This document shows, piece after piece, positions 6,106-22,891 of a stretch of 53,360 bases of DNA. The notes beneath the pieces were generated by a model. That model searched no databases. It was not told the DNA's origin and saw nothing but the letters and a program-made list of their open reading frames with translations. This stretch comes from Actinomycetota bacterium (GTDB lineage: Bacteria; Actinomycetota; CADDZG01; JAHWKV01), in contig DASTUJ010000193.1 in the NCBI GenBank assembly GCA_035759705.1, positions 1 through 53,360 of the forward strand, read 5' to 3'. Each line of letters begins with the position of its first letter. The stretch's first letter is position 1. Made by a program: the position numbers and the translations under genes.

Positions 6106-6512
6106 GACACTTGCCGGTTGCTTTTGGTCAACCGAACGGCCGGGAGTCCGCCGTCCTCGATGTCCACGCTGTCCGACAGGGCCGAGAGGATCGTCCAGGC
6201 CATGGACTCCTTGATGTCTTCGGGGGTTTTGGACGAGGACCCGTCCCCGGCGACGGTCAACTCGAGCGCACCATCATGGAAGCCGATGGTCAGGTTGAGC
6301 ACCGTCGAGTCTGGGGACAGCTCCAGAACCTGCCCGCAGGCCTCGTCGACCACCAGACGGAGGTCGTCGATGGCGTCGATGGTGAAGTCCCTGGATGCGG
6401 CCGCACTGGCCACGACCGAGCGCAGTATGTGCAGGAACTCGGGCTGGGCAGGCAAAGAGACTTCGATGTCGCCGGGCAATGGGACTCCAGACTGTCTAGG
6501 ACGGTGAGACAT
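6102..6512 (-). CDS. anti-sigma factor, RsbW/UsfX-like (HATPase_c-like fold, degenerate ATP motifs)
   Basis: 136 aa. Start LPAQPEFLHILRSVV..., N-box-like LVVDEACGQV (lacks the usual Asn/His), then LELTVAGDG. Translationally coupled immediately upstream of the sigma gene. Confidence 0.7.
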   Translation of the reverse strand: MSHRPRQSGVPLPGDIEVSLPAQPEFLHILRSVVASAAASRDFTIDAIDDLRLVVDEACGQVLELSPDSTVLNLTIGFHDGALELTVAGDGSSSKTPEDIKESMAWTILSALSDSVDIEDGGLPAVRLTKSNRQVS

Positions 6513-6608
6513 ATACTAGCGGTGTAAATTCTCGCAGGACATTCGCAGGGGGCGGCCATCCAACTATCAATAGATTCCTCTTCACAGGATCCTTGGGTCG
6601 TAGTAAAG

Positions 6609-6905
6609 GTGGAGGGCGAGGTGGATCTCTCAAACGCCGCCGGGCTTCGGGACCACCTGATCGAGCAGGTACAGCAGGGCCACTACAATCTCGCCGTGGA
6701 CCTGACAGGGGTTGAGTTCATGGACTCTAGCGGCCTCGCCGTCCTCATCTCTGGCCTTCGGCGAACCAAGGAGCACGACGGGTCGCTGGTTTTGATCTCC
6801 CCGACCGCCTCGGTCAAGCGGGTCCTGACCATCACGGGCCTGGACCGTGTCTTCGACATCTACGACTCGGTCGAAAAGGCTGCAGCCGGCGCCTCCCCGG
6901 CCTGA
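6609..6905 (+). CDS. anti-sigma-factor antagonist (STAS domain, RsbV/SpoIIAA-like); the coding region probably begins upstream at a non-canonical codon
   Basis: GEVDLSNAAGLRDHL ... VEFMDSSGLAVLISGL ... VLTITGLDRVFDIY is a typical STAS core with the phosphorylatable DSSG motif. 6609 is the first canonical (GTG) start, but STAS-like sequence continues in frame back to 6528 (see finding). Confidence 0.8.
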   Translation: MEGEVDLSNAAGLRDHLIEQVQQGHYNLAVDLTGVEFMDSSGLAVLISGLRRTKEHDGSLVLISPTASVKRVLTITGLDRVFDIYDSVEKAAAGASPA

Positions 6906-6913
6906 CGCAGACC

Positions 6914-7321
6914 TTGTTTAGCATCTCTTTCCCCGCCGAGGCCGTGCACGTCAGCACCGCCCGCATCTTCTCCGCCGCCGTCGCCCGGCACTTCGGGGCC
7001 GACGCGGCCGACATCGAGGATCTCAAGATCGCCCTGACCGAAGCCTGCGGCAGCGCTATCTCCCACGCAAAGACCGGGGGTTCCGAGTCGGTGCAGGTTT
7101 CGGCAACTCCCGGTGCCGGGATGTTGACCTACGAAGTCAACGGCCACCGCCGGACCGACCTGTTGAATACGCCGGGCGGGGAGATCGAGCAGAGCACCGA
7201 GGAGCAGATGATCGCACTCAGCGCCGAGCTCATAGGCGCCCTGTTCCCGGATGCGGAGTTCATCGACAAGCCCGAGGGAACCTTCTTCCGTCTCTCGGTG
7301 CTCGCGTCGGGCGCAGGCTAG
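6914..7321 (+). CDS. second RsbW-like anti-sigma regulatory protein (degenerate HATPase_c)
   Basis: 135 aa with a TTG start 9 nt after the STAS stop. FPAEAVHVSTARIFSAAV..., N-box-like ALTEACGSAISHA. Same layout as RsbV-RsbW pairs. Confidence 0.6.
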   Translation: MFSISFPAEAVHVSTARIFSAAVARHFGADAADIEDLKIALTEACGSAISHAKTGGSESVQVSATPGAGMLTYEVNGHRRTDLLNTPGGEIEQSTEEQMIALSAELIGALFPDAEFIDKPEGTFFRLSVLASGAG

Positions 7322-7517
7322 CCCCGAACTTCCCTCCCACTCTTCGTGGGCGGATTCAGTATCTATCGGCAGATCTCAGGGAACTTTTAAAGATTTTCTC
7401 GCGCAGATAGTGATTTTCTTGCTACAATTTCAAACACTCACAGTGAGCAACTTCTAGCCCCCAAACCGATCTGCCGAACACGCCAATGCCCAAGGTCCTG
7501 CTTCACCTATGCCTGCT

Positions 7518-9227
7518 TCACCTGAGCGCTGCCGCTGTTGCCTCCCACAGGAGGCGGTGGACGGTGACGTTCGCCTCACGAGACGTCTTTGCCTCGATCA
7601 AATGTGCCCCACCCATTCCCACCGCCCGCAGCACTGCCGGCGCCAACTCGGAGGGATCATGAATCAACGAGTAGCTGCAGTTGTAGAAATTGGCCAGCCT
7701 GGAGAAATCGAGGCCGTGGGGGGTCCCGAACAACTTCTCGAATCCGGGCTGAGCAGCCTGAGGCAGGAAGGAAAATATTCCTCCTCCGTCGTTGTTCACC
7801 ACCACGAACACCACGTCAATGGAGCCCTCTGATGCGGCAAGCAAACCGTTCTGATCGTGGAGAAGTGAAAGGTCGCCGGTCAATGCAACAACTGGCCCGG
7901 AGTGCGAAAGGGCAGTTCCTAGGACGGAGGAGGCGAATCCGTCGATCCCGTTCGCGCCGCGGTTCGCCAGGAGTTGCACCCCGGGCGACGTACGCATAGA
8001 CCAGTCGAGGTCGCGAATCGGCATGCTGGACGCCACGTACAGAACCGACCCGTCGGGCAGGCATCCGGCCAGATCCCGGGCGATTCGGGGCTCGGTGATC
8101 CCCTGCCCGTCCAGGAGTGTGTCGATGGCCTCCCGGGCCAGGTCATCCGCCTGAAGCCAGCCGTTTAGCCACTCCGAGTGGGGGGACTCGGAAGTGGCGG
8201 CGGCTAAAGCAGTGAAGACCTGATCCGGGTCGGCCCGAAGCATCCAGGACAGGGACCGGGCGGGGTCCAGCCAGGCGCTGGGGTCGATTGAGATCTGACG
8301 GACCGGCGAGTCGAGCAGGGCGGCGAGACTCGGAGAGGTCCCAAGGTTCCCGATCCGGATCACCAGGTCGGGGCGGTGCGACTCCGCAAACTCGGGTTGG
8401 CGCAACAAAGCTTCGAATGTCGAGATGGCCGGGGGGCCGGTACGCACGTTTGAGGTCGCCTCGGCCAGCACCGGCCAGGCGGCCTTGCGTGCGGTAGCAA
8501 GGATAGGTTCGGCGTTGTGCAGCCCGGTCCCCACCGCGATCACCCCGCGTGCGGTTCCCTCGATCTCCTCTATGAGCCGCTGCAGGTCCTCCTCCGACGC
8601 GGCTCTCGGCGAGTGCGACTCCTCGGTCCACGGACGTCCGCCCTCCCGCCCGTCCAGCGGGAATGGGAACCCGGCGGGGTCTGCGACCGGCACCAGGGGG
8701 TTGCGAAACGCCAGGTTCAGGTGCACCGGGCCGGCCGCGGGCCAGCGGCTGACTGCATAGGCCCGGGAGGCCAGCGACCGCCAGTACCCGACCGATTCCG
8801 GCCTCGCCTCGGCCACCCCGACCTCCACGAACCAGCGGACCGTGTCACCGAACATCTTGATCTGGTCGATGGTCTGCCCGGCGCCGGTGTCGCGCAGCTC
8901 GGGGGGCCGGTCGGCAGTCAGCACGATCATCGGCACCTGGGCGAAGGAGGCCTCGATCACCGCCGGGTACAGGTTGGCGGTCGCGGTGCCCGACGTCGTC
9001 GCCACCATCGCGGGGACGCCCGTCACCTTGGCCAGGCCCAGGGCCAGGAAAGCCGCCGAGCGTTCGTCGATCGACACGTGCAGGCTGATCTCCGGCCGGG
9101 CGTCCAGGGCGAGCGCCAGCGGCGTGGACCGGGAGCCGGGGCCGAGGCAGGCGTGGGTCACGCCGGCGCGGATCAGCTCGTCGACCAGGACCGTCGCCAG
9201 CGCGTGACCGGCGTTCTCCGCTTTCAT
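7518..9227 (-). CDS. menD: 2-succinyl-5-enolpyruvyl-6-hydroxy-3-cyclohexene-1-carboxylate (SEPHCHC) synthase
   Basis: 569 aa. TPP-enzyme N-terminus LVDELIRAGVTHACLGPGSRSTPLALAL, and C-terminal TPP motif GDLSLLHD...VVVNNDGGGIF. Operonic with menC/menA/menB. Confidence 0.92.
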   Translation of the reverse strand: MKAENAGHALATVLVDELIRAGVTHACLGPGSRSTPLALALDARPEISLHVSIDERSAAFLALGLAKVTGVPAMVATTSGTATANLYPAVIEASFAQVPMIVLTADRPPELRDTGAGQTIDQIKMFGDTVRWFVEVGVAEARPESVGYWRSLASRAYAVSRWPAAGPVHLNLAFRNPLVPVADPAGFPFPLDGREGGRPWTEESHSPRAASEEDLQRLIEEIEGTARGVIAVGTGLHNAEPILATARKAAWPVLAEATSNVRTGPPAISTFEALLRQPEFAESHRPDLVIRIGNLGTSPSLAALLDSPVRQISIDPSAWLDPARSLSWMLRADPDQVFTALAAATSESPHSEWLNGWLQADDLAREAIDTLLDGQGITEPRIARDLAGCLPDGSVLYVASSMPIRDLDWSMRTSPGVQLLANRGANGIDGFASSVLGTALSHSGPVVALTGDLSLLHDQNGLLAASEGSIDVVFVVVNNDGGGIFSFLPQAAQPGFEKLFGTPHGLDFSRLANFYNCSYSLIHDPSELAPAVLRAVGMGGAHLIEAKTSREANVTVHRLLWEATAAALR

Positions 9228-10135
9228 CGTGCGCCGAGCTCCGAGAGCGGGTGGGGGTCGGCGTAGCGGTCGAGCAGCGCCGGGTCAACCTGTGGCCGGC
9301 GCACCTCGATCCTCCCGTCCACCGGGACCAGCGAGTGGGCCACGAGGTCGCCCGCCAGCAGGGGGACGGTTCCCAGCCCGCACGGATAGGGCAGGTGCTC
9401 CAGGGCGGCCGCAAGGGCAACCCCGGCCGATATGCCCACCGACGTCTCCAGCATGCTCGAAACGATCGCCGGGAGACCCGACTCTTCGATCGCCTGCATC
9501 GCCCGGTTGATCCCGCCCAGGGACTGGACCTTGACCACGAGCACGTCGGTCGCCTCGAGCTCCACCAGCCGGCGAACCGACTCCAGGGAGCTCGCCAGCT
9601 CATCGGCGGCGATTGGCACGTCGACGGCCCGCCGGACCTCGGCCATCTCCTCGATCGTCCGCACCGGCTGCTCGACCAGGTCGACGGAATACCGGGAGAG
9701 GACGTTGATGCACCGAACCGCCTCGTCGACGTTCCAGGCGCCGTTGACGTCGACCACCAGCCGGCCGCCCGGTCCGAGGGCATCCCGGACCGCCTCGACC
9801 CGGGCTTCGTCGTTGCCCTCGGCCACCTTGACCTTGGCCGCAGAGCAGCCCGACGCACGGACCAGAGCCGCCGCCGCCTCCGGCTCCAGCGCCGGGACGG
9901 TTACGTGGACCGGGATGTGGTCCCGGAACGGTGCCGGCCACGATTCGAACGCGGAGGCGTAGGCACTGGATACCGCCGCCCGGTGGTCCTCCGTCCCGAA
10001 CCCGGGGAACGGCGAGAACTCCCCCCAGCCTTGGGGCCCCGAGACGACCGCTCCCCTTCGGGAGGTCTGGCCCCGGAACGGCATGCGCAACGGGATGTTG
10101 AAGTACCGCCATTCCGGACCGGCCGGTGCGGTCAC
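9224..10135 (-). CDS. menC: o-succinylbenzoate synthase (enolase superfamily)
   Basis: FNIPLRMPFRG..., KVKV, VVDVNGAW, DLVEQP, IAADE (metal and acid/base ligands of MenC). GTG at 10135 forms a GTGA overlap with the menA stop. The ORF-track extension to 10666 overlaps menA and is Arg/Gly/Pro-rich. Confidence 0.85.
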   Translation of the reverse strand: MTAPAGPEWRYFNIPLRMPFRGQTSRRGAVVSGPQGWGEFSPFPGFGTEDHRAAVSSAYASAFESWPAPFRDHIPVHVTVPALEPEAAAALVRASGCSAAKVKVAEGNDEARVEAVRDALGPGGRLVVDVNGAWNVDEAVRCINVLSRYSVDLVEQPVRTIEEMAEVRRAVDVPIAADELASSLESVRRLVELEATDVLVVKVQSLGGINRAMQAIEESGLPAIVSSMLETSVGISAGVALAAALEHLPYPCGLGTVPLLAGDLVAHSLVPVDGRIEVRRPQVDPALLDRYADPHPLSELGAR

Positions 10136-10995
10136 AACCAGAGCCCCATGGCCAGCAACACCCCGAAGGCCAGTTGAAGCCTGGCGGTACCGACCAGCAC
10201 GCCGATCAGTTCGCGGCCGCTGTCCGTGGAGACCTTGCGAAGCACCGGGATCGCCAGCGGGAACGAGAGCAGCGGCAGGAGCACCCAGGGGCCGCCTCCG
10301 CATAGGGCGATGAGGCCCAGCGACAGGTAGGAACCGACGATGAGCGCCTTGAAGACCAACCGGGTCCGGGCGTCGCCCAGAATCACCGCCAGCGTCCGCT
10401 TGCTGGTCCGGGAGTCGGTCGGGATGTCTCTTAGGTTGTTGGCCACGAGGATGGCCGCAGCCAGGAAACCGACCGGGACCGAGGCGGAGAGCGCCAGCGG
10501 GGAGATCTCCTCTATCTGGACGTAGGCCGAGCCCACGGTCGCGACGACCCCGAAGAAGATGAAGACGAACACCTCGCCGAGCCCCCGTGAGCCGTAGGGG
10601 TAGGGGCCGCCGCTGTAGCCGAGGGCCGCGATCACGCTCACCGCCCCGACGGCAACCAGCTCCCACCCGGCAACTGCCGCAAGACCGACACCGGTGGCCA
10701 CGGCCACCAAAAAGGCGGCGATCATCGCATTGCGCATCGCCCCGGGCGAGATCAAACCGGAGGAGGTGAGCCGCCGGGGGCCGAGCCGCTCGTGGGTGTC
10801 GACACCCTTCACCGCGTCGAAGTAGTCGTTGGCGAAGTTCACGCCGATCTGCATGAAGACGGCCACGACCAGCGCGCCGAGAAACCTCGGCGGCGAAAGG
10901 CGGCCGGCAGCTGCGGTGCCGGCCAGCACCGGGACGATGCCGGCCACGAGGGTGCGGGGCCTGGCAGCCTCTACCCAGTACCTTCGATCGGCCAC
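10132..10995 (-). CDS. menA: 1,4-dihydroxy-2-naphthoate polyprenyltransferase
   Basis: 287 aa, polytopic. UbiA-family motifs NFANDYFDAVKGVD and NNLRDIPTD. Confidence 0.9.
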   Translation of the reverse strand: MADRRYWVEAARPRTLVAGIVPVLAGTAAAGRLSPPRFLGALVVAVFMQIGVNFANDYFDAVKGVDTHERLGPRRLTSSGLISPGAMRNAMIAAFLVAVATGVGLAAVAGWELVAVGAVSVIAALGYSGGPYPYGSRGLGEVFVFIFFGVVATVGSAYVQIEEISPLALSASVPVGFLAAAILVANNLRDIPTDSRTSKRTLAVILGDARTRLVFKALIVGSYLSLGLIALCGGGPWVLLPLLSFPLAIPVLRKVSTDSGRELIGVLVGTARLQLAFGVLLAMGLWL

Positions 10996-11007
10996 GGCTC
11001 TCGAGGC

Positions 11008-11856
11008 CTACGGCCTGCGGGGGAACTTGCCGAAGTCCGGCGCACGCTTCTCCAGGTAGGCGTCACGGCCCTCCTGCGCTTCTTCGCTCATGTAATAAAG
11101 GAGAGTGGCGTCCCCGGCCAGCTGCTGGATTCCGGCCATGCCGTCGGTGTCTGCGTTGAACGACGCCTTGAGGAGCCGGAGCGACAGCGGGCTCTTGGCA
11201 AGGATCTTGCGGCACCACTCCACCGTCGCCGCCTCGAGCTCGGCGAGCGGCACGACCTTGTTGACCAGCCCCATGTCCAACGCCTCCCGGGCGTCGTACT
11301 GGTCGCAGAGAAACCAGATCTCCTTGGCCTTTTTCAGGCCGACCATCCGTGCCAGCAGGCCGGCGCCGTAACCCCCGTCGAAAGAGCCCACCCGCGGACC
11401 GGTCTGGCCGAAGCGTGCGTTGTCGGCCGCGATGGTCAGGTCGCAGACCACGTGCAGGACGTGCCCGCCGCCGATGGCGTACCCCGCCACCATCGCGACC
11501 ACCGGCTTCGGGAGCCGGCGGATCTGCACCTGCAGGTCGAGGACGTTAAGGCGCCCGACGCCGTGGTCGTCGGAGTAGCCGTCGTCGATGCGGACCCTCT
11601 GGTCCCCGCCGGAACAGAAGGCAAGGTCACCGGCGCCGGTGAGGATCACCACCCCGACCGTCGGGTCGTCACGGGCCAGGTCGAAGGCCTTGATCAGCTC
11701 GAAGACGGTCTTCGGGCGGAAGGCGTTGCGTACCTCGGGCCGGTTGATGGTGATCTTGGCGATGCCCTCGAAGGTCTCGTAGAGGATGTCCTCGAAGTCG
11801 CCGGAGCCTTCCCAGGCGAAAGTCGCCACCTCTTCAGCTTCTGAGCTCATACGCAT
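11008..11856 (-). CDS. menB: 1,4-dihydroxy-2-naphthoyl-CoA synthase
   Basis: Crotonase-fold MenB signatures: [48 protein letters not shown], and the C-terminal [14 protein letters not shown]. Confidence 0.95.
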
Positions 11857-11938
11857 TGACTCCTGAGTGATAACTCGAATCGTTAGAGTAACTTATCAGA
11901 CGAAGTCACTCTATCCTGGACTACCCGACAGGAGCGTC

Positions 11939-13114
11939 GTGAGCGACAGACGTCTAATAGCCCTACGCTACCCAAACCGCACGATGGCCGCCCGGCTGAA
12001 CGAGCTGTGGGACGGCGGTTTCGCCGCCCTCCCGCTCAGCCCATCGCTGCCCGGCGCCGAGGTTGGCGCCCTCCTCGAGGAGCTCAAGCCCGCCCGTATA
12101 GAGGACGAATCCGGCTGCACCGACCTGCCCGGCGGAGTGCCGGTGGCGGAAGGGGTGGCCGTGGTGATCGCCACCTCCGGGGCTTCGGGGAAGCCGAAGG
12201 GGGTCGAGCTTTCCCACGCCGCACTGGAGTGGTCCGCCCGGGCCTACGCCGAACGGCTGGGCACCCGTCCCGGGGAGCGCTGGCTCGGCTGCCTGCCGCT
12301 TTCCCACATTGGAGGCCTGGGCATTCTGGTCCGGTCTCGCCTGGCGGGCACCGAACCGGTGATCCACGACCGGTTCGACCCGGAGGCGGTCGCAGCCGAG
12401 CAGGATACGACGCTGATCTCGCTGGTCCCCACCACGCTGATGCGCCTGATGGACGCGGGGGTCGACCTGGCCCGGTACTCCGCCGTGCTGATCGGCGGCG
12501 CAGGACTTCCGGCCGCAACCGCTGAGCGCGCCCGCTTCGCCGGGATCCGGCTGGTCCACACCTACGGGCTGACCGAGACCTGCGGGGGCTGCAACTTCGA
12601 CGGGGTGCCGCTCGACGGCGCCGAGTTCCGGGTGGTCGACGAGATGATCCGGGTCCGGGGACCGATGCTGATGAACGGCTACCGCCTGAACCCGGAGCTC
12701 ACCTCGGACGCGCTGGAGGGCGGGTGGCTGCACACCGCCGACCGGGGCCGGATCGACTCGAACGGGGTCCTGGAGGTTTTCGGCCGGGCCGACGACCTGA
12801 TCGTCACCGGCGGGGAGAAGGTTTCGGCAATCGAGGTGGAGAACCTGATTCAGACCCACCCCCTGGTCGCCGACGCGGCGGTGGCCGGGATCGACGACTA
12901 CCGCTGGGGCCAGGCGGTGGCCGCCCTGATAGTCCCCCGGGGAAGCTCGGTCCCAACCCTGCGGGAGCTCAAGGGCTTTCTGACCGGGAAGCTTGCCGGC
13001 TTCAAGGCGCCCAAGAGGATCCTCATCGTCGACGAGGTGCCGCGCACCGCCTCGGGCAAGGTCCGGCGGCAGGCGGTGAGGGACCTGCTGGAGTCGTCCG
13101 AGGTAACCGGTTGA
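11939..13114 (+). CDS. menE: o-succinylbenzoate--CoA ligase
   Basis: AMP-binding motifs TSGASGKPKGVELSH, TYGLTET, and GWLHTADRG...TGGEKV, ending SGKVRR. GGAG sits 5 nt before GTG 11939. The track start at 11867 would leave only 10 bp to the divergent menB. Confidence 0.85.
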   Translation: MSDRRLIALRYPNRTMAARLNELWDGGFAALPLSPSLPGAEVGALLEELKPARIEDESGCTDLPGGVPVAEGVAVVIATSGASGKPKGVELSHAALEWSARAYAERLGTRPGERWLGCLPLSHIGGLGILVRSRLAGTEPVIHDRFDPEAVAAEQDTTLISLVPTTLMRLMDAGVDLARYSAVLIGGAGLPAATAERARFAGIRLVHTYGLTETCGGCNFDGVPLDGAEFRVVDEMIRVRGPMLMNGYRLNPELTSDALEGGWLHTADRGRIDSNGVLEVFGRADDLIVTGGEKVSAIEVENLIQTHPLVADAAVAGIDDYRWGQAVAALIVPRGSSVPTLRELKGFLTGKLAGFKAPKRILIVDEVPRTASGKVRRQAVRDLLESSEVTG

Positions 13115-13187
13115 CGCAACTTCGGACTCGAGCTTAAGCCCGGGCCCTAATCGGCCGAAAGTACTGGTAAACGGCCGGGGAGAAGGT

Positions 13188-13565
13188 GTGGGCACCAAAC
13201 TTGGGGCAGTTGCGGAGATCCAACCGTCCGCAAGCAGGTCCCGGCGGCGCGCAATCGTGCTGTTCTGCGCTGCGTTCATCGCGGTTCAGATCCTCGTGCC
13301 GATTTACAGGCTTGCCTTGCCCCCGAACCAGCCGTTCGGCTGGCAGATGTACTCCTCGGTCGCCGGATACCGCTACGAAGTGAAGCTGGCCGACGGGACC
13401 ACCTCCGAAGCCGACCCGGTCGACTACGTTCTGCGGTACCGGACGGAGATCGACTTCCGGGATCACCTGCCCCCGGTGCTCTGCCGGGCGTTCCCCGATG
13501 CCACCGAGATCGTGACCTCCAACCGGCTCCTCGGGAGCAACGAGAGCTTCCCGTGCGACCGCTAG
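13188..13565 (+). CDS. small N-terminally anchored hypothetical protein, translationally coupled to the HTTM gene
   Basis: GTG start with GGGGAG 5 nt upstream. RRR followed by hydrophobic helix AIVLFCAAFIAVQILVPIY, then a ~85-aa soluble part with 2 Cys. 13-nt overlap with the next gene. Confidence 0.55.
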   Translation: MGTKLGAVAEIQPSASRSRRRAIVLFCAAFIAVQILVPIYRLALPPNQPFGWQMYSSVAGYRYEVKLADGTTSEADPVDYVLRYRTEIDFRDHLPPVLCRAFPDATEIVTSNRLLGSNESFPCDR

Positions 13566-14410
13566 CCGCCCTCAAGGCGCTCCCCGACACCGAGGCCGCC
13601 TCCCTGCCGATCGGCCTGGCCCGGGCCGGGCTGGGCGTGGCCACGCTACTCGGCGCCGCCGAGATGGCCCGTGGCCTGAAGGCGTTGCACACGCCCGGCG
13701 TTCTCAGGATTCCGAGGTTCGAATCCCTCCCGGTGCTGCCGCAGTCCGCGGTCGCCGTGTTTCTCGGCGCCTGGGCCCTGGCGTCCATCGCCTTGCTCCT
13801 GGGGTGGCATACCCGGACCGCCGGCGTCCTTCTAATAGGCTTTCAGGCCTACGCACTGGCTCTCGACCATCAGCTCTACAGCAACCACCTGTACCTGATG
13901 GCCCTGTTCACGCTACTGCTCACCCTGGCCGACAGCGGCGCCTCCTTTTCGCTGGATGCGCACCGCAGGGGAAGTGTGCCTTATATACCCGCCTGGCCGG
14001 TGGCGTTGATGCGCGTGCTGATCAGCATCGTCTACAGCTTTGCGGTCCTGGCCAAGCTGAACGCGTTCTTCCTGTCGGGCATCGTCCTTCGACAGAACAT
14101 GAAGGTCCCCGGGATGGAGCACCTGCCCAACTGGGTTTTTATGATCCTTGCCCTGGCGTCGGTGGCAACCGAGGCCTTCCTCGCCTACGCCTTCTGGAGG
14201 AAGCGGCTGAGGGTCTTCGCGTTCCTGGTCGGGCTCGGATTCCACGTGACGATCGTGTTCACGATGTGGCTCTTCCCTGACCTGCTCACCTTCGCAGTGA
14301 TCATGGGGTCGGCGTACCTGGCGTTCTTCAGCCGGTTCCGGCCGGCCGAGCTTGGCCTTGCGCTGCCGGACCGGGATGGCGAGGGCCTAGCCCTGCAGCT
14401 CAGCCGCTAA
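13553..14410 (+). CDS. polytopic membrane protein with HTTM / vitamin-K-dependent gamma-carboxylase-like domain (tentative)
   Basis: 285 aa with multiple TM helices. LLLGWHTRTAGVLL...LALDHQLYSNHLYLMALFTLLLTLADSGASFSLDA resembles the HTTM core pattern (G..tR ... NH.YL..L..LL ... fSlD) as I recall it. Not verified by HMM. Confidence 0.6.
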   Translation: MRPLAALKALPDTEAASLPIGLARAGLGVATLLGAAEMARGLKALHTPGVLRIPRFESLPVLPQSAVAVFLGAWALASIALLLGWHTRTAGVLLIGFQAYALALDHQLYSNHLYLMALFTLLLTLADSGASFSLDAHRRGSVPYIPAWPVALMRVLISIVYSFAVLAKLNAFFLSGIVLRQNMKVPGMEHLPNWVFMILALASVATEAFLAYAFWRKRLRVFAFLVGLGFHVTIVFTMWLFPDLLTFAVIMGSAYLAFFSRFRPAELGLALPDRDGEGLALQLSR

Positions 14411-15438
14411 CCGCGCGGCCGGCGCCGGTATTCGGGCTGGAGCCAGGCCGGGTCGAATCCGTTGTCGGCAGGGTTCAGCGTCACGCCGGGAGGAACCAGC
14501 TCGTCGATGGCGTCCAAAGCCTCGGTCGAGAGCCTGATCTCGGCCGCGCCCAGCTGCCCTTTTAGCTGGTCCAGGTTTCGGGGGCCGATGATCGCGGAGG
14601 TCACCGCCGGGTGCTCGAGCACCCAGGCGACCCCAAGCTCAACCAGGGAGATCCCTTCCTTCTCCGCAAGGGGGATCAGCCCCTCAATCACCTCGTACTT
14701 GCGCTTGTTGCCGGGCAGGGCCTCGTCGAACCGGGCCGGGATCCGCTCTGCCCTGCCGGTCTTCTCGACCGGCTTGCCCTTGCGGAACTTCCCGGAGAGC
14801 CAGCCTCCGGCGAGGGGGCTCCAGACGATCACCCCCATCCGGTGCTTGACCGCCGCCGGCAGCACGGCCCTTTCTATGTCCCGCACGAGGATCGAGTAGG
14901 GAGGCTGCTCGCAGACATACCGCTCCAGACGCCGGTCGGCGGCCACCCACTGGGCCTCGACGATGTCGGCGGCAGGAAAGGTGGTCGACCCGGCGTAGCG
15001 GATCTTGCCCTGACGAATCAGGTCGGTCAGCGCCCCGAGGGTCTCTCCGGCGTCCATCAGCTGGTCGGGCCGGTGCGCCTGGTAGAGGTCGATGTAGTCG
15101 GTGCCCAGGCGCCGAAGCGACGCCTCCACGGCCCGGAATATGTACTTGCGGGAGGTTCCACGGTCGTTGGGCCCCTCGCCCATCGGGTTGTAGAACTTCG
15201 TGGCGAGCACGATGTCGTCGCGGTTGCGGCCCTTGATGGCCTTGCCGACGATCTCCTCGCACTCCCCGTCGGAGTAGATGTCGGCGGTGTCGACGAAGTT
15301 GATGCCGGCGTCGAGCGCGGCGCGGATCACCTCGATCCCCTCTTCGTGGTCCGGGTTGCCCCACTTGCCGAACATCATCGTGCCCAGGCAGAGCGGGCTG
15401 ACCATCACGCCGGTGGCGCCGAGCCGCACGTACTCCAT
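14407..15438 (-). CDS. aldo/keto reductase
   Basis: MEYVRLGATGVMVSPLCLGTMMFG ... INFVDTADIYSDGECEEIVGKAI ... ATKF ... IDLYQAHRPD, typical AKR motifs. Confidence 0.92.
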   Translation of the reverse strand: MEYVRLGATGVMVSPLCLGTMMFGKWGNPDHEEGIEVIRAALDAGINFVDTADIYSDGECEEIVGKAIKGRNRDDIVLATKFYNPMGEGPNDRGTSRKYIFRAVEASLRRLGTDYIDLYQAHRPDQLMDAGETLGALTDLIRQGKIRYAGSTTFPAADIVEAQWVAADRRLERYVCEQPPYSILVRDIERAVLPAAVKHRMGVIVWSPLAGGWLSGKFRKGKPVEKTGRAERIPARFDEALPGNKRKYEVIEGLIPLAEKEGISLVELGVAWVLEHPAVTSAIIGPRNLDQLKGQLGAAEIRLSTEALDAIDELVPPGVTLNPADNGFDPAWLQPEYRRRPRG

Positions 15439-20833: not shown

Positions 20834-22891
20834 ATGACTCATAACTCGGAAACCGACCTGACCAGGAGGGCTCATAAAATGGGTGGCTTCAGGCTGGGCA
20901 GTCATCGGAAGGACCGGGGGCATCTGCCCCCGGCTCCGGCCGAGGCTCCGGGCAGTGGTCGGCCGGTTGCCGAGAGCCCCGTGGCGCGGAACAGGATTCA
21001 GCCCACGGAGTTCGGCAACATGGCCAACCCTCTTGCCTCGAGCGCCCGCAAAGCATCTAAGGCAGACGTTTGGGCCTCCACCGGAGCAACCGCTCCTCAG
21101 GAAGCTAACAGCTACTCCCGACCGGGACGGGCCGGCAGGCCCAACTGGGCTCCGGAGCAGGCTCCCGTCGCACAAAGCGGCGCCGGACAGCCTGTGAAGG
21201 CCCGGTGGCAGGCACCTGCACCGGCCCCGGCGGCTCCTGCCGTCAACCGCAACGGTCACTCCACGATCCAGCCGCCTCGTTCCGGCTACAACCCGGAGGC
21301 GCCGCAAAGCGCCAACGGGAACGCTCGGACCGAGATCGACTATGTCGAGGAGAGGCCCACGCCGCGCTCCAACTCGGGAAGCTCGCACCAGTCCGCGCTT
21401 TCGGTCGCTCTCGACAGCCAGCTGTCGGATCCGGCCGCCCGCACGGCGCCGGTTCACGAGCCCGTCAACGAAAACAAGAGCAACGGACGTTCCGCCCAGG
21501 GTGCCTGGGCCGAGGGGATCCAGGACGACGACTGGGACTCCGAGGATGAGGACGAGTCGGTAGACGGCGATCGGGTTCCCAGGGTTCTGGTGCTCGACCG
21601 TGTCGGCGACTTCTCCAACGACCTCGCCCGTGCAACGGTCGACCTGGACCCGGCGCCGGAGATTCTCCGGTTGAGCCGTTCCACCCAGGTGATCGACGTG
21701 GTGGAGCAGGAGGAGCCGGACGTCATCGTGGTAGCTCCGGAAGAGGTGACCGGTGCAGGCCTCAAGCGCCTGGCCGAGATCCACCGGAACGACCCGAAGA
21801 TCGTCATCGTCCTCTCCGAGGGCACCAAGCCGGTGACCTCGGCTCAAACTGCTGCATGCGGGACGAGTGACATCATCCCGGCCGGTACCACCAAGGCACG
21901 TCTGCGGAGCAAGATGATGCGAGCTCTTCAGACCGCCGAGGAGCTGCGCCAGGAACACCTCGTGGTTGAGGAACGGATAGTCATCCAGGAACCCTCTTTC
22001 CTCGAGCAGACGCTTGAGCCCGAGCCGGTCGAGGAGTTCAAGCCGGCGCCGTTTGTCGCCAGGCCCGCCGCCCGCAACACCAAGCTGGCACGGGTCTTCA
22101 CGGTGGCATCGGCATCGGGAGGCTGCGGCAAGACCTTCTACGCCACCAACTTCGCTGCTTACCTGGCGAAGGCAACCGGCGGCAGGGTACTGCTCGTGGA
22201 CCTGGACCTGCAGTTCGGCGAGGTTGCGATTTCCTTGCACCTTCGCCCGAAGCGGACGATCTCCGAGCTCGTACAGGAGGAGGACATCGCCGCAGCGCTC
22301 AGCGACTACGTCGTGGACCACGGCGCGGGCTACAAGGTGCTTTGTGCGCCGCGTGACCCGATCGCCGGCGACAAGGTCGGGCCCCGGGAGACCACCGCAG
22401 TTCTGGAGGCCGCCCGTACCCAGTTCGACTACATCGTGGTGGACACCCCGCCTTCGATCAACGAGACCTGCCTGGCCGCTTTCGACCAGTCCCAGTCGCT
22501 CGTGATCATGGCGACGATGGACCTCCCGTCACTTAAGAATCTGAGGGTTTTCCTTGAAACCCTTAAGAAGTTGAACCTTCCTGCCGATCAGGTATCGCTG
22601 GTCGTCAACAAGGCCGAGTCCGGAACCGGAATCGATCTGAAGGAAGTGGAGCCGCTCTACCCCCAGGGCTTCTCCGCGGTTCTTCCGTATGCCAAGCAGG
22701 TGTCCTGGTCCATCAACATGGGGATGCCCGTCCTGGTAGCCGACCCCAACGCTGACATCAGCCGCAAGCTGTTTGAAGGTGCGGTGAAGCTTGTTGCGCC
22801 ACTTCCGGGGAAGCAAGTTCCCTGGATGGCACCCGCAGCTGCCCCCCGGCGCGGATGGTTCTCTAGGTTATTGAAAGGAAAGGCCAAATGA
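20834..22891 (+). CDS. CpaE/TadZ-type ParA/MinD-family ATPase with a long low-complexity N-terminal extension and a receiver-like domain
   Basis: Deviant Walker A in VFTVASASGGCGKTFYATNFA, then LLVDLDLQFGE and IVVDTPP. Preceded by a REC-like segment (PDVIVVAPE...IVIVLSE). The first ~250 aa are Pro/Ala/Ser/Gly-rich. The exact start is uncertain. Confidence 0.8.
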   Translation: MTHNSETDLTRRAHKMGGFRLGSHRKDRGHLPPAPAEAPGSGRPVAESPVARNRIQPTEFGNMANPLASSARKASKADVWASTGATAPQEANSYSRPGRAGRPNWAPEQAPVAQSGAGQPVKARWQAPAPAPAAPAVNRNGHSTIQPPRSGYNPEAPQSANGNARTEIDYVEERPTPRSNSGSSHQSALSVALDSQLSDPAARTAPVHEPVNENKSNGRSAQGAWAEGIQDDDWDSEDEDESVDGDRVPRVLVLDRVGDFSNDLARATVDLDPAPEILRLSRSTQVIDVVEQEEPDVIVVAPEEVTGAGLKRLAEIHRNDPKIVIVLSEGTKPVTSAQTAACGTSDIIPAGTTKARLRSKMMRALQTAEELRQEHLVVEERIVIQEPSFLEQTLEPEPVEEFKPAPFVARPAARNTKLARVFTVASASGGCGKTFYATNFAAYLAKATGGRVLLVDLDLQFGEVAISLHLRPKRTISELVQEEDIAAALSDYVVDHGAGYKVLCAPRDPIAGDKVGPRETTAVLEAARTQFDYIVVDTPPSINETCLAAFDQSQSLVIMATMDLPSLKNLRVFLETLKKLNLPADQVSLVVNKAESGTGIDLKEVEPLYPQGFSAVLPYAKQVSWSINMGMPVLVADPNADISRKLFEGAVKLVAPLPGKQVPWMAPAAAPRRGWFSRLLKGKAK

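Follow-up and report, generated by a model that had tools for sequence, protein, structure and literature searches.

The window (the whole stretch of DNA analyzed, 53,360 nucleotides) carries two overlapping genes, one for a 125-residue protein and one for an HTTM membrane protein, between menE and a convergent aldo-keto reductase gene. The features of the locus are listed below.

11867–13114, + strand: menE (o-succinylbenzoate-CoA ligase), the upstream neighbor, outside the module.
13133–13161, + strand: WhiG/FliA-type promoter-like motif CTTAAG-N15-GGCCGAAAG, recognized by conservation and enrichment.
13133–13137, + strand: CTTAA, the −35-like part of the WhiG/FliA-type motif.
13154–13161, + strand: GCCGAAAG, the −10-like part of the WhiG/FliA-type motif.
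13177–13182, + strand: Shine-Dalgarno-like GGGGAG, 5 nt upstream of the GTG of the small gene, read from the sequence.
13188–13565, + strand: gene for the putative small subunit, 125 amino acids, GTG start at 13188.
13553–14410, + strand: gene for the putative HTTM subunit, 285 amino acids, GTG start at 13553.
14407–15438, − strand: aldo-keto reductase gene (PF00248), convergent with the HTTM gene, outside the module.

The menE product has an AMP-binding domain match and matches the NCBIfam menE models below their equivalog cutoffs. Its homologs begin aligning at about residue 22–30, and the true menE start probably lies downstream of 11867. A 73-nt gap separates the menE stop at 13114 from the GTG of the small gene at 13188. 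The small gene ends at 13565 and overlaps the HTTM gene, which starts with the GTG at 13553, by 13 nt, and the aldo-keto reductase gene overlaps the stop of the HTTM gene by 4 nt. The coordinates and peptides given in the initial annotation (LLLGWHTRTAG, LDHQLYSNHLYLMALFTLLLTLAD, ASFSLDA, and GWQMYSS) were verified, and all are present. It had described the pair as appended to the menaquinone cluster on the same strand. This is correct for menE, which shares the + strand of the pair, but not for menB, menA, menC, and menD, which are on the − strand and divergent from menE. Both open reading frames are real genes, as judged by 16 close homologs of the small protein at 58–99% identity and by the Pfam match of the HTTM protein. 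The GC and GC3 contents of the pair are those of the flanking genes, which rules out a recent horizontal transfer of the pair. The open HTTM frame spans 419 codons and has no start codon 5′ of 13553; a frameshifted single gene was ruled out because separate overlapping genes are kept across phyla.

The two genes strictly co-occur, and 7 of 61 relatives carry them next to each other. The HTTM gene is located directly 3′ of the small gene in 20 of the 20 genome loci found, which span at least four phyla (Actinomycetota, Chloroflexota, Acidobacteriota, and Gemmatimonadota). A stop/start overlap is found at the junction in the window and at loci L024, L030, L035, L036, and L038. The overlap measures 4–13 nt in each lineage whose junction was examined, and overlaps of this size fit translational coupling. 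The family of the small protein comprises 695 clusters at 50% identity, and its best 150 matches are all stand-alone small proteins. The pair is obligate.

To our knowledge, bacterial HTTM proteins are many, and almost none of them has a known function. The HTTM protein of the window matches Pfam PF05090 with 84.2 bits (cutoff 27.7; E = 1.5e-23) over profile positions 9–245 of 259. A phmmer search related it to GGCX, the vitamin-K-dependent carboxylase (VKGC) of animals (E = 9e-9), which was its sole PDB relative by sequence, and profile A5 matched GGCX residues 48–319 with E = 6.6e-24. The AF2 model of the protein (pLDDT 92, pTM 0.87) has eight transmembrane helices. A Foldseek search with this model (E ≤ 1e-3) returned 16 matches, all of them human GGCX chains, with query-normalized TM-scores of 0.73–0.76. 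The HTTM assignment made in the initial annotation is confirmed by the PF05090 score, which is above the gathering threshold, and by the GGCX match at the level of phmmer, profile, and fold. The HTTM protein is the counterpart of GGCX 48–319, the quinone-binding epoxidase core. Two sets of codons mark the predicted active site.

13883–13888, + strand: codons for N111-H112, the equivalent of GGCX N159/H160, nearly invariant.
14054–14056, + strand: codon for K168, the equivalent of the catalytic GGCX K218, invariant in the clade.

E207 is invariant and aligns with GGCX D263 (Asp to Glu), F247 is invariant and corresponds to GGCX F299, and H231 is conserved and corresponds in the alignment to GGCX H287. 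K218 has a catalytic role in GGCX (PMC13486548, PMC12647623), and the GGCX D263E mutant is still active (PMC13486548). In GGCX, N159 and H160 form hydrogen bonds to the Glu carboxylate, and H160 has a further part in holding CO2 (PMC12647623). The equivalents of the CO2/carbanion-pocket residues N159, H160, and F299 are all retained in the HTTM protein. GGCX W223 is not kept in the HTTM alignment, where F, Y, or L is found instead, and GGCX N290 has no equivalent there. HTTM relatives at 35–45% identity bear a C-terminal DCC1-like CxxC domain. We did not detect a DCC domain in the HTTM protein or anywhere in the host genome.

Alignments A1 and A2, an AF2 model (pLDDT 73.6), and the hydropathy profile were used to derive the layout of the small protein. 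It consists of an Arg-rich cytoplasmic N terminus, one transmembrane helix (about residues 15–47), a FGWQMYS loop, and an outward-facing outer α/β domain of about 70 amino acids that has two invariant Cys residues (C99 and C123). The loop is encoded as follows.

13335–13355, + strand: codons for the invariant motif F50-G-W-Q-M-Y-S56, the equivalent of Y397-S398-W399-D400-M401-M402-V403 in the LL9 loop of GGCX.

BLASTP aligned residues 21–92 of the small protein with residues 374–454 of the host's own full-length HTTM+PF22777 protein (E = 5e-7). The hhalign comparison of A2 with A3, which covers the PF22777 regions from nine canonical proteins, gave a 95.6% match (E = 1.1e-8) that spans only the first roughly 65 positions, and A3 matched GGCX 361–505 with E = 5e-20. 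The mapping of FGWQMYS onto GGCX is transitive, from A2 to A3 to GGCX; direct hhalign of A2 with the single human GGCX segment gave the same register with a nonsignificant E of 0.042. The LL9 loop of GGCX, with Y395 and M402, is located at the active site (PMC12647623). The Y395 position is occupied by Q or N in the loop of the small protein, which is 7 residues shorter. The small protein had no significant match in Pfam or NCBIfam, the Pfam search covering all 14 A2 members at E ≤ 10, and the PF22777 HMM does not match it. A PDB sequence search with profile A1 yielded chance WW/Tudor matches only, and the best Foldseek match to the small-protein model had E = 0.45. Very tentatively, the initial annotation had likened the small protein to the segment that comes after the HTTM domain in the longer proteins of the family, and the BLASTP, hhalign, and GGCX 361–505 matches bear this likeness out. 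By homology, and in agreement with its topology, the small protein is the ninth helix and LL9 active-site loop of a VKGC, that is, a predicted subunit of the enzyme. The partner family, about 700 clusters at 50% identity that have no Pfam entry, would represent the detached VKGC ninth helix and active-site loop.

Together, the two gene products probably make up a minimal relative of the VKGC/GGCX carboxylase/epoxidase that is split into two subunits. The HTTM protein would contribute transmembrane helices 1–8 with the naphthoquinol site and residues K168, N111/H112, E207, H231, and F247. The 125-residue protein would contribute the ninth helix, the LL9 loop, and a small domain that caps the outer membrane face. 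Both proteins are probably produced in matched amounts and would form a core of nine helices similar to that of a VKGC. If it acts as GGCX does, this complex would oxidize menaquinol with O2 to yield a strongly basic intermediate and then menaquinone epoxide. At the outer membrane face, the base would take a proton from a substrate, which might also be carboxylated. This substrate is probably not a propeptide-bearing Glu protein of the GGCX type, since the pair has lost or altered clamp B, the propeptide site, Y395, W223, and N290. Y395, W223, and N290 are not conserved, and therefore carboxylation is not assured. Menaquinol is a plausible cofactor based on the GGCX homology and on the ability of the host to make menaquinone, and not on gene order. 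The host genome encodes men genes and three heme-copper oxidase genes, and the presence of MenA in 6 of 10 other carrier genomes likewise suits such a cofactor. A search of the host genome for VKOR and DCC-type epoxide-recycling genes detected none, which rules out a local vitamin K cycle.

The idea that the pair is instead a non-oxygenase membrane factor for the maturation of exported proteins or for redox relay, either SdpA/SdpB-like or a thiol-quinone relay, is unlikely. The DCC1-like CxxC domain in relatives at 35–45% identity, the loss of Glu-binding residues, and the partner-first gene order shared with sdpAB and the DUF5819-HTTM pairs would all suit such a factor. The pair also adjoins cell-envelope genes (Tad/Flp, GT87, PMT_2, NlpC/P60, and OmpA) in other lineages, which is consistent with a role in the maturation of exported proteins. 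However, the equivalents of K218, D263 (as Glu), H160, and F299 are invariant or nearly so, and this conservation is hard to explain without quinol chemistry. Neither protein matches any NCBIfam model at E ≤ 1 in a set that would include SdpA and SdpB models, and no DCC domain is present anywhere in the host genome.

The initial annotation had derived the function of the pair from its proximity to the men genes. An accessory function in the menaquinone cluster with cotranscription from menE, such as that of a menaquinone epoxidase or tailoring enzyme dedicated to the pathway, would be in keeping with the naphthoquinol cofactor of the enzyme family and with the location of the pair on the menE strand, 73 nt downstream and with no terminator-like hairpin between. 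The menE-pair arrangement is also kept in all genomes and metagenome contigs of the host's genus-level lineage. However, none of the 18 loci outside this syntenic genus has a men gene within 10 kb of the pair. The pair in genome G018 adjoins cysDN and a SoxR-like gene, and MenA scored above the cutoff in 6 of 10 other carrier genomes, where it is encoded on other contigs than the pair. Relatives that lack the pair have menE directly against either the aldo-keto reductase gene (G014 and G010) or YjbQ. It thus looks as though the pair was inserted after menE in this genus specifically, separating menE from its ancestral neighbor, the convergent aldo-keto reductase gene. The linkage is confined to the syntenic genus, and the site is empty in the family relatives.

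Besides a lack of men linkage in other genomes, the initial annotation had named an independent promoter as a sign against its reading, and a conserved WhiG/FliA-type promoter-like motif was found between menE and the pair. The sequence CTTAA-N15/16-(G/A)CCGA is present at this position in 8 of 8 orthologous loci, with GCCGA in 7 of them, and CTTAA and CCGA are invariant and keep a fixed spacing in all 8. The motif is absent 3′ of menE in genomes without the pair. The host genome contains 29 copies compared to 6.6 expected from base composition, and the window contains 2 compared to 0.04 expected. The same elements at other spacings or in reversed order have 2–3 genome copies. The motif is about 10-fold enriched genome-wide. 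The published WhiG/FliA consensus is T(A/C)AA-N16-GCCGATAA (PMC8325347; bioRxiv 10.64898/2026.01.14.699351). The TTAA-N16-GCCGAAAG of the window has three mismatches to this consensus and one to the genome's own CTTAA..GCCGATAG class, and the host genome encodes a FliA/WhiG sigma factor. The menE-pair gap was scanned for a consensus sigma-70 promoter and a terminator, and neither was found. Read-through from menE into the pair is possible because there is no terminator after menE. These data indicate that the pair has its own promoter-like site, predicted to be of the WhiG/FliA type. With men linkage absent from all 18 loci outside the genus and a promoter-like motif separating menE from the pair, the adjacency of the men genes appears to be a misleading clue that reflects no conserved functional link, and a menaquinone-cluster accessory is quite improbable.

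The flp pilin gene 3 kb away is preceded by the perfect form of the same promoter class, and this site class also precedes many host genes whose products are secreted or located at the surface. The module is therefore more likely to belong to a cell-surface program than to menaquinone biosynthesis, and the pair may be WhiG-regulated together with pili and surface proteins. Four or five separate lineages have Tad/Flp genes no more than 10 kb from the pair. In the cultured carrier Halostreptopolyspora alba, the two genes share a strand with tadABC and a TadE-like gene and are located 3′ of them. Neighbor clustering by all-against-all BLAST of raw open reading frames was swamped by spurious GC-rich frames and gave one lineage-specific neighbor only, membrane proteins of about 520 amino acids in Chloroflexota. 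The promoter class of flp, the Tad/Flp neighbors, and the retained CO2-pocket residues hint at modification of pilins or surface proteins. It is a long shot that the pair is a VKGC-type enzyme under WhiG control, driven by menaquinol and O2, that acts at the outer membrane face on Flp/Tad pilins or on other secreted surface proteins that share this regulon. It would modify them after translation, with carboxylation of an acidic residue as one example. If true, this reading would provide a bacterial vitamin-K-type protein modification with a defined substrate class.

The small protein could alternatively be a substrate or precursor peptide of the HTTM enzyme, an option raised in the initial annotation and compatible with a gene that adjoins and is coupled to the enzyme gene and with the acidic residues of the outward-facing domain, but this is very improbable. 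The protein is homologous to helix 9 and LL9 of full-length VKGC and so matches a segment that belongs to the enzyme itself, its loop motif and helix are most conserved rather than an acidic acceptor site, and completion of the GGCX fold is predicted for the analogous DUF5819 partner.

The proposed split carboxylase/epoxidase relative resembles GGCX in the fold of the membrane core, in the equivalents of K218, N159/H160, D263 (as Glu), H287, and F299, and in a ninth helix that is followed by a W-x-M loop (GGCX 397–403). GGCX is a single chain with nine helices and a complete lumenal domain that includes clamps A and B and the propeptide site, whereas the pair is split 8+1 with the ninth-helix piece encoded first, and its lumenal domain is cut to about 70 residues. 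The pair has no clamp B, propeptide site, or C-terminal domain, it does not keep Y395, W223, and N290, and its expected cofactor is menaquinol. Full-length bacterial proteins with PF05090 and PF22777 (VKGC_lumenal_dom) include the host paralog on contig C138, a Leptospira ortholog, and MloH from the malonomycin pathway. The match of the small protein to these proteins covers the helix and the first strands in PF22777, and the catalytic residues are the same. These proteins are single chains of 440–530 amino acids with a lumenal domain of about 150 amino acids and a WTEEGYRFSW loop; the loop of the small protein is 7 residues shorter and is without the Tyr equivalent to Y395. The HTTM domain scores 84 bits in the window protein compared to 285 bits in the host's canonical paralog.

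The truncated VKGC-like epoxidases of giant viruses also have an HTTM core with K218 and a D263E-type acidic residue while the rest of the carboxylase is absent (PMC13486548). The viral proteins lack GGCX 374–418 and have no small open reading frame nearby to supply this segment (PMC13486548), whereas a separate gene would supply it here. The pair has no desaturase fusion, and the host genome has no VKOR.

A similar arrangement is that of the DUF5819-HTTM pairs, also found in Streptomyces, in which the gene immediately 5′ of the HTTM gene overlaps it and encodes a small partner with an N-terminal anchor. The AF3 model of the DUF5819 and HTTM-DCC1-like pair of Melghirimyces thermohalophilus (A0A1G6IAS5/A0A1G6IBF2) resembles whole GGCX, with the partner helix replacing a GGCX helix and the partner domain predicted to sit at the clamp position (bioRxiv 10.64898/2026.08.19.745780). 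Relatives of the window HTTM protein carry the DCC1-like fusion, whereas the window protein itself has no DCC domain. Membership of the small protein in DUF5819 was ruled out since PF19136 is unmatched in the genome (E ≤ 10) and hhalign gave 0.3%. The outer domain of the small protein is about half the size of that of the DUF5819 partner, and the small protein has detectable homology to PF22777, whereas none was detectable with the DUF5819 alignment used. The pair would define a minimal two-subunit VKGC form that drops Y395, W223, N290, and clamp B but keeps the equivalents of K218, D263, H160, and F299, and that differs from the DUF5819 type, which was described in silico in 2026.

The ORF coordinates, the 73-nt gap after menE (stop at 13114), the 13-nt overlap and all peptide motifs quoted in the initial annotation were recovered from the sequence. 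The genes are arranged as follows.

13188–13565, + strand: small ORF (125 aa), GTG start, 73 nt past menE
13553–14410, + strand: HTTM ORF (285 aa), GTG start, 13-nt overlap with the small ORF
14407–15438, − strand: aldo-keto reductase (AKR) gene, convergent, its stop overlapping the HTTM stop by 4 nt

As a correction, menB, menA, menC and menD are on the strand opposite to menE and diverge from it. The listed menE start (GTG 11867) leaves just 10 nt to the start of the divergent menB, menE homologues align only from about residue 22–30, and the same frame offers an ATG at about 11984 (window 11867–11990). The start at 11867 is probably too far upstream.

The HTTM assignment held in a profile test against PF05090 (84.2 bits; Pfam cut-off 27.7). 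Human vitamin K-dependent carboxylase (GGCX) is the sole relative of the protein among solved structures by sequence (single-sequence search, E = 9e-9), and a 33-member HTTM profile matches GGCX residues 48–319 with E = 6.6e-24. The AF2 model (pLDDT 92, pTM 0.87) has eight transmembrane helices, and all 16 Foldseek matches at E ≤ 1e-3 were GGCX chains (TM-score 0.73–0.76). By this model, GGCX is the only relative by fold as well. A clade alignment of HTTM proteins was used to map residues onto GGCX positions with published roles (PMC12647623; PMC13486548).

K168: GGCX K218, invariant in the clade
N111/H112: GGCX N159/H160, nearly invariant
E207: GGCX D263, invariant
H231: GGCX H287, invariant
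F247: GGCX F299, invariant

The GGCX W223 position is F, Y or L in the clade, and GGCX N290 has no counterpart in the clade alignment.

The small protein had no match in Pfam or NCBIfam. Its assignment to DUF5819 was rejected (no match to PF19136; hhalign 0.3%). In the family alignment, an Arg-rich N terminus precedes a single transmembrane helix; FGWQMYS and two cysteines, C99 and C123, are invariant, and a YVLRYR-E-D-R stretch is conserved. These features fit a membrane anchor with its N terminus inside and, on the outside, a small C-terminal domain in which C99 and C123 may form a disulfide. The AF2 model (pLDDT 73.6) consists of a long helix and then a four-strand, one-helix domain. A very tentative likeness to the region after the HTTM domain in longer family members had been proposed, and profile and pairwise comparisons bear it out. 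Residues 21–92 align by BLASTP with residues 374–454 of the canonical HTTM protein of the host (E = 5e-7), within its match to the carboxylase lumenal domain PF22777, and when the partner alignment was compared by hhalign with the PF22777 region from nine canonical proteins, the probability was 95.6% (E = 1.1e-8). The PF22777 region of canonical proteins matches human GGCX 361–505 with E = 5e-20. These alignments show that the small protein is homologous to the stretch that comes after HTTM in full-length bacterial members of the family. When the alignments are chained, its helix corresponds to GGCX helix 9 and FGWQMYS to GGCX Y397-S398-W399-D400-M401-M402-V403, part of the 393–404 Glu-site region and of the lumenal loop LL9. 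LL9 is conserved and reaches the active site (PMC12647623). The small-protein loop is 7 residues shorter than in canonical proteins, and the Y395 position is not conserved.

The pairing of the two genes is obligate. Both are present and adjacent in 7 of 61 relatives, and neither occurs alone in any of the 61. A scan of one genome per species located 20 FGWQMYS-type loci in Actinomycetota, Chloroflexota (Roseiflexaceae, Limnocylindria, Chloroflexia), Thermoanaerobaculia, Gemmatimonadota and the cultured Halostreptopolyspora alba. The HTTM gene is directly downstream on the same strand in 20/20, with a 4–13-nt overlap at every junction checked. In relatives at 35–45% identity, a DCC1-like CxxC domain is fused to the C terminus of the HTTM protein. 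When 1.84 billion representatives were searched by profile, 695 partner-family clusters were returned (423 at E ≤ 1e-10), and the best 150 of the 695 are all stand-alone proteins of about 100–200 aa.

The initial annotation had drawn a function from the men linkage. The neighborhood survey does not support this step: men genes were found within 10 kb of the pair at none of 18 loci outside this lineage. In family relatives without the pair, menE abuts the AKR gene (G014, G010) or YjbQ (G005, G016). The pair is therefore best read as an insertion into the menE–AKR gap, and an old one because its GC and GC3 match those of the flanking genes. Within the genus, the syntenic block runs sigma island, menDCAB, menE-small-HTTM, AKR, YjbQ, IMPase and PPIase. 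Pair identity between genomes is 43–54%, versus 86–92% for menB and 82–88% for AKR; the pair evolves faster than its neighbors. In G018, from a different genus of the family, the pair (L024, 1046–3792) has cysDN on one side and a SoxR-like regulator on the other; the regulator gene, convergent and of the MerR family, carries a SoxR-type CIGCGCLS..C redox-sensing motif. One genome of the host genus (L071, G005:C3) lacks both the pair and the AKR gene, and YjbQ follows menE by about 70 nt.

A promoter-like site, CTTAA-N15/16-(G/A)CCGA, lies in the gap from the menE stop to the small gene in 8/8 orthologous loci. CTTAA, CCGA and the spacing are fixed; seven loci have GCCGA and one (L031) ACCGA. 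The motif is absent downstream of menE in pair-less genomes. The host genome contains 29 copies, where base composition predicts 6.6; patterns with another spacing or in reversed order have 2–3 matches each, and the window contains 2 copies versus 0.04 expected. In 25 of the 29 host copies the match continues to GCCGAT, most often as GCCGATAG, and about 22 are 5–150 nt upstream of a same-strand ORF. The host promoter class can be summed up as CTTAA-N15/16-GCCGATAG, and its sequence resembles the published WhiG/FliA consensus, −35 T(A/C)AA, N16, −10 GCCGATAA (PMC8325347; bioRxiv 10.64898/2026.01.14.699351). A FliA/WhiG sigma factor is encoded elsewhere in the genome (C41:11833–12510; TIGR02479, 262.7 bits, cut-off 189.6); the one encoded in the window belongs to the SigB/F/G type. 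Genes downstream of the class, identified by reading the sequence only, include those for a TadG-like protein, an ECF sigma factor, ClpC, two ~1020-aa secreted proteins and two that look like CAP-domain proteins for secretion. Sites in the window are as follows.

13133–13161, + strand: WhiG/FliA-type promoter-like motif, 29 nt before the small-gene start codon
17293–17318, + strand: perfect TAAA-N16-GCCGATAA, with the flp pilin gene (17449) about 130 nt downstream
22562–22587, + strand: motif-class copy inside cpaE/tadZ, about 300 nt upstream of tadA
7365–7390, − strand: motif-class copy in a low-GC island (7321–7518), antisense to STAS/RsbW-like genes

Co-transcription with menE had been proposed. 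No terminator was found between menE and the pair, so read-through is possible; the conserved motif separates the pair from menE as a candidate promoter of its own.

In H. alba (L051, NZ_RJMB01000016.1, 1144–12859), the pair follows, on the same strand, tadA/B/C and genes for a histidine kinase, a LuxR regulator and TadE/G-like, OmpA-family and NlpC/P60 proteins, and a gene for a 559-aa protein without a Pfam match comes after it. In four or five separate lineages (also L050, L035 and L036), Tad/Flp genes are no more than 10 kb away from the pair, which appears to be more often than chance would give. The Chloroflexota loci (Limnocylindria, Chloroflexia; L038/L055, L044, L045, L047, L049, L057, L058) place a DCC-fused pair among GT87 glycosyltransferase genes, with recurrent ~500–560-aa membrane proteins without a Pfam match nearby, which suggests a cell-envelope glycan locus. 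The pair may be regulated together with pili and surface proteins, and this is the most useful new lead.

The analysis establishes homology, fold, conserved catalytic residues and obligate pairing, and the topology fits a division into 8+1 helices, with the break in the cytoplasmic loop that joins helices 8 and 9. The pair is predicted to be a two-subunit carboxylase-like enzyme of a recently recognized kind. Both proteins would assemble into a core like that of the GGCX family, which would oxidize menaquinol with O2; the strong base so formed would act on a substrate at the outer membrane face. Menaquinol is a plausible cofactor: the host has men genes and three heme-copper oxidase genes, and in 6 of 10 other carrier genomes MenA scores above cut-off, unlinked to the pair. 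The H160 and F299 equivalents are kept, so carboxylation may be possible. With Y395, W223, N290 and two parts of the GGCX lumenal domain (clamp B and the propeptide site) lost, GGCX-type carboxylation of Glu in propeptide-bearing proteins is unlikely. For epoxide recycling, neither a VKOR nor a DCC gene was found in the host genome. The original observation is confirmed and its interpretation partly supported, with a men-cluster link that is local and probably not functional.

Contig C138 of the host carries another HTTM gene, of the canonical type (285–287 bits), with a complete PF22777 lumenal domain. The neighbors of this gene (L029:6990–8558, in 6360–11075) encode small secreted proteins that are acidic, glycine-rich and cysteine-containing (6360–6854, with an LPRTG-like C-terminal anchor; 8598–9182; 9443–10108; 10404–11075), possible substrates of the canonical carboxylase-like enzyme. 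MloH and the Leptospira orthologue are likewise full-length bacterial forms, whereas the window enzyme would be two chains. Truncated carboxylases of giant viruses lack GGCX 374–418, and no small ORF nearby supplies it (PMC13486548); in the window, just this segment is encoded by a gene of its own. Among described systems, the DUF5819 and HTTM-DCC pair is the closest; its AF3 model (August 2026) has the partner helix replacing a GGCX helix and the partner domain at the clamp position (bioRxiv 10.64898/2026.08.19.745780). The window pair has the same architecture, but its partner belongs to a different, smaller family, which is not represented in Pfam and is still homologous in sequence to PF22777.
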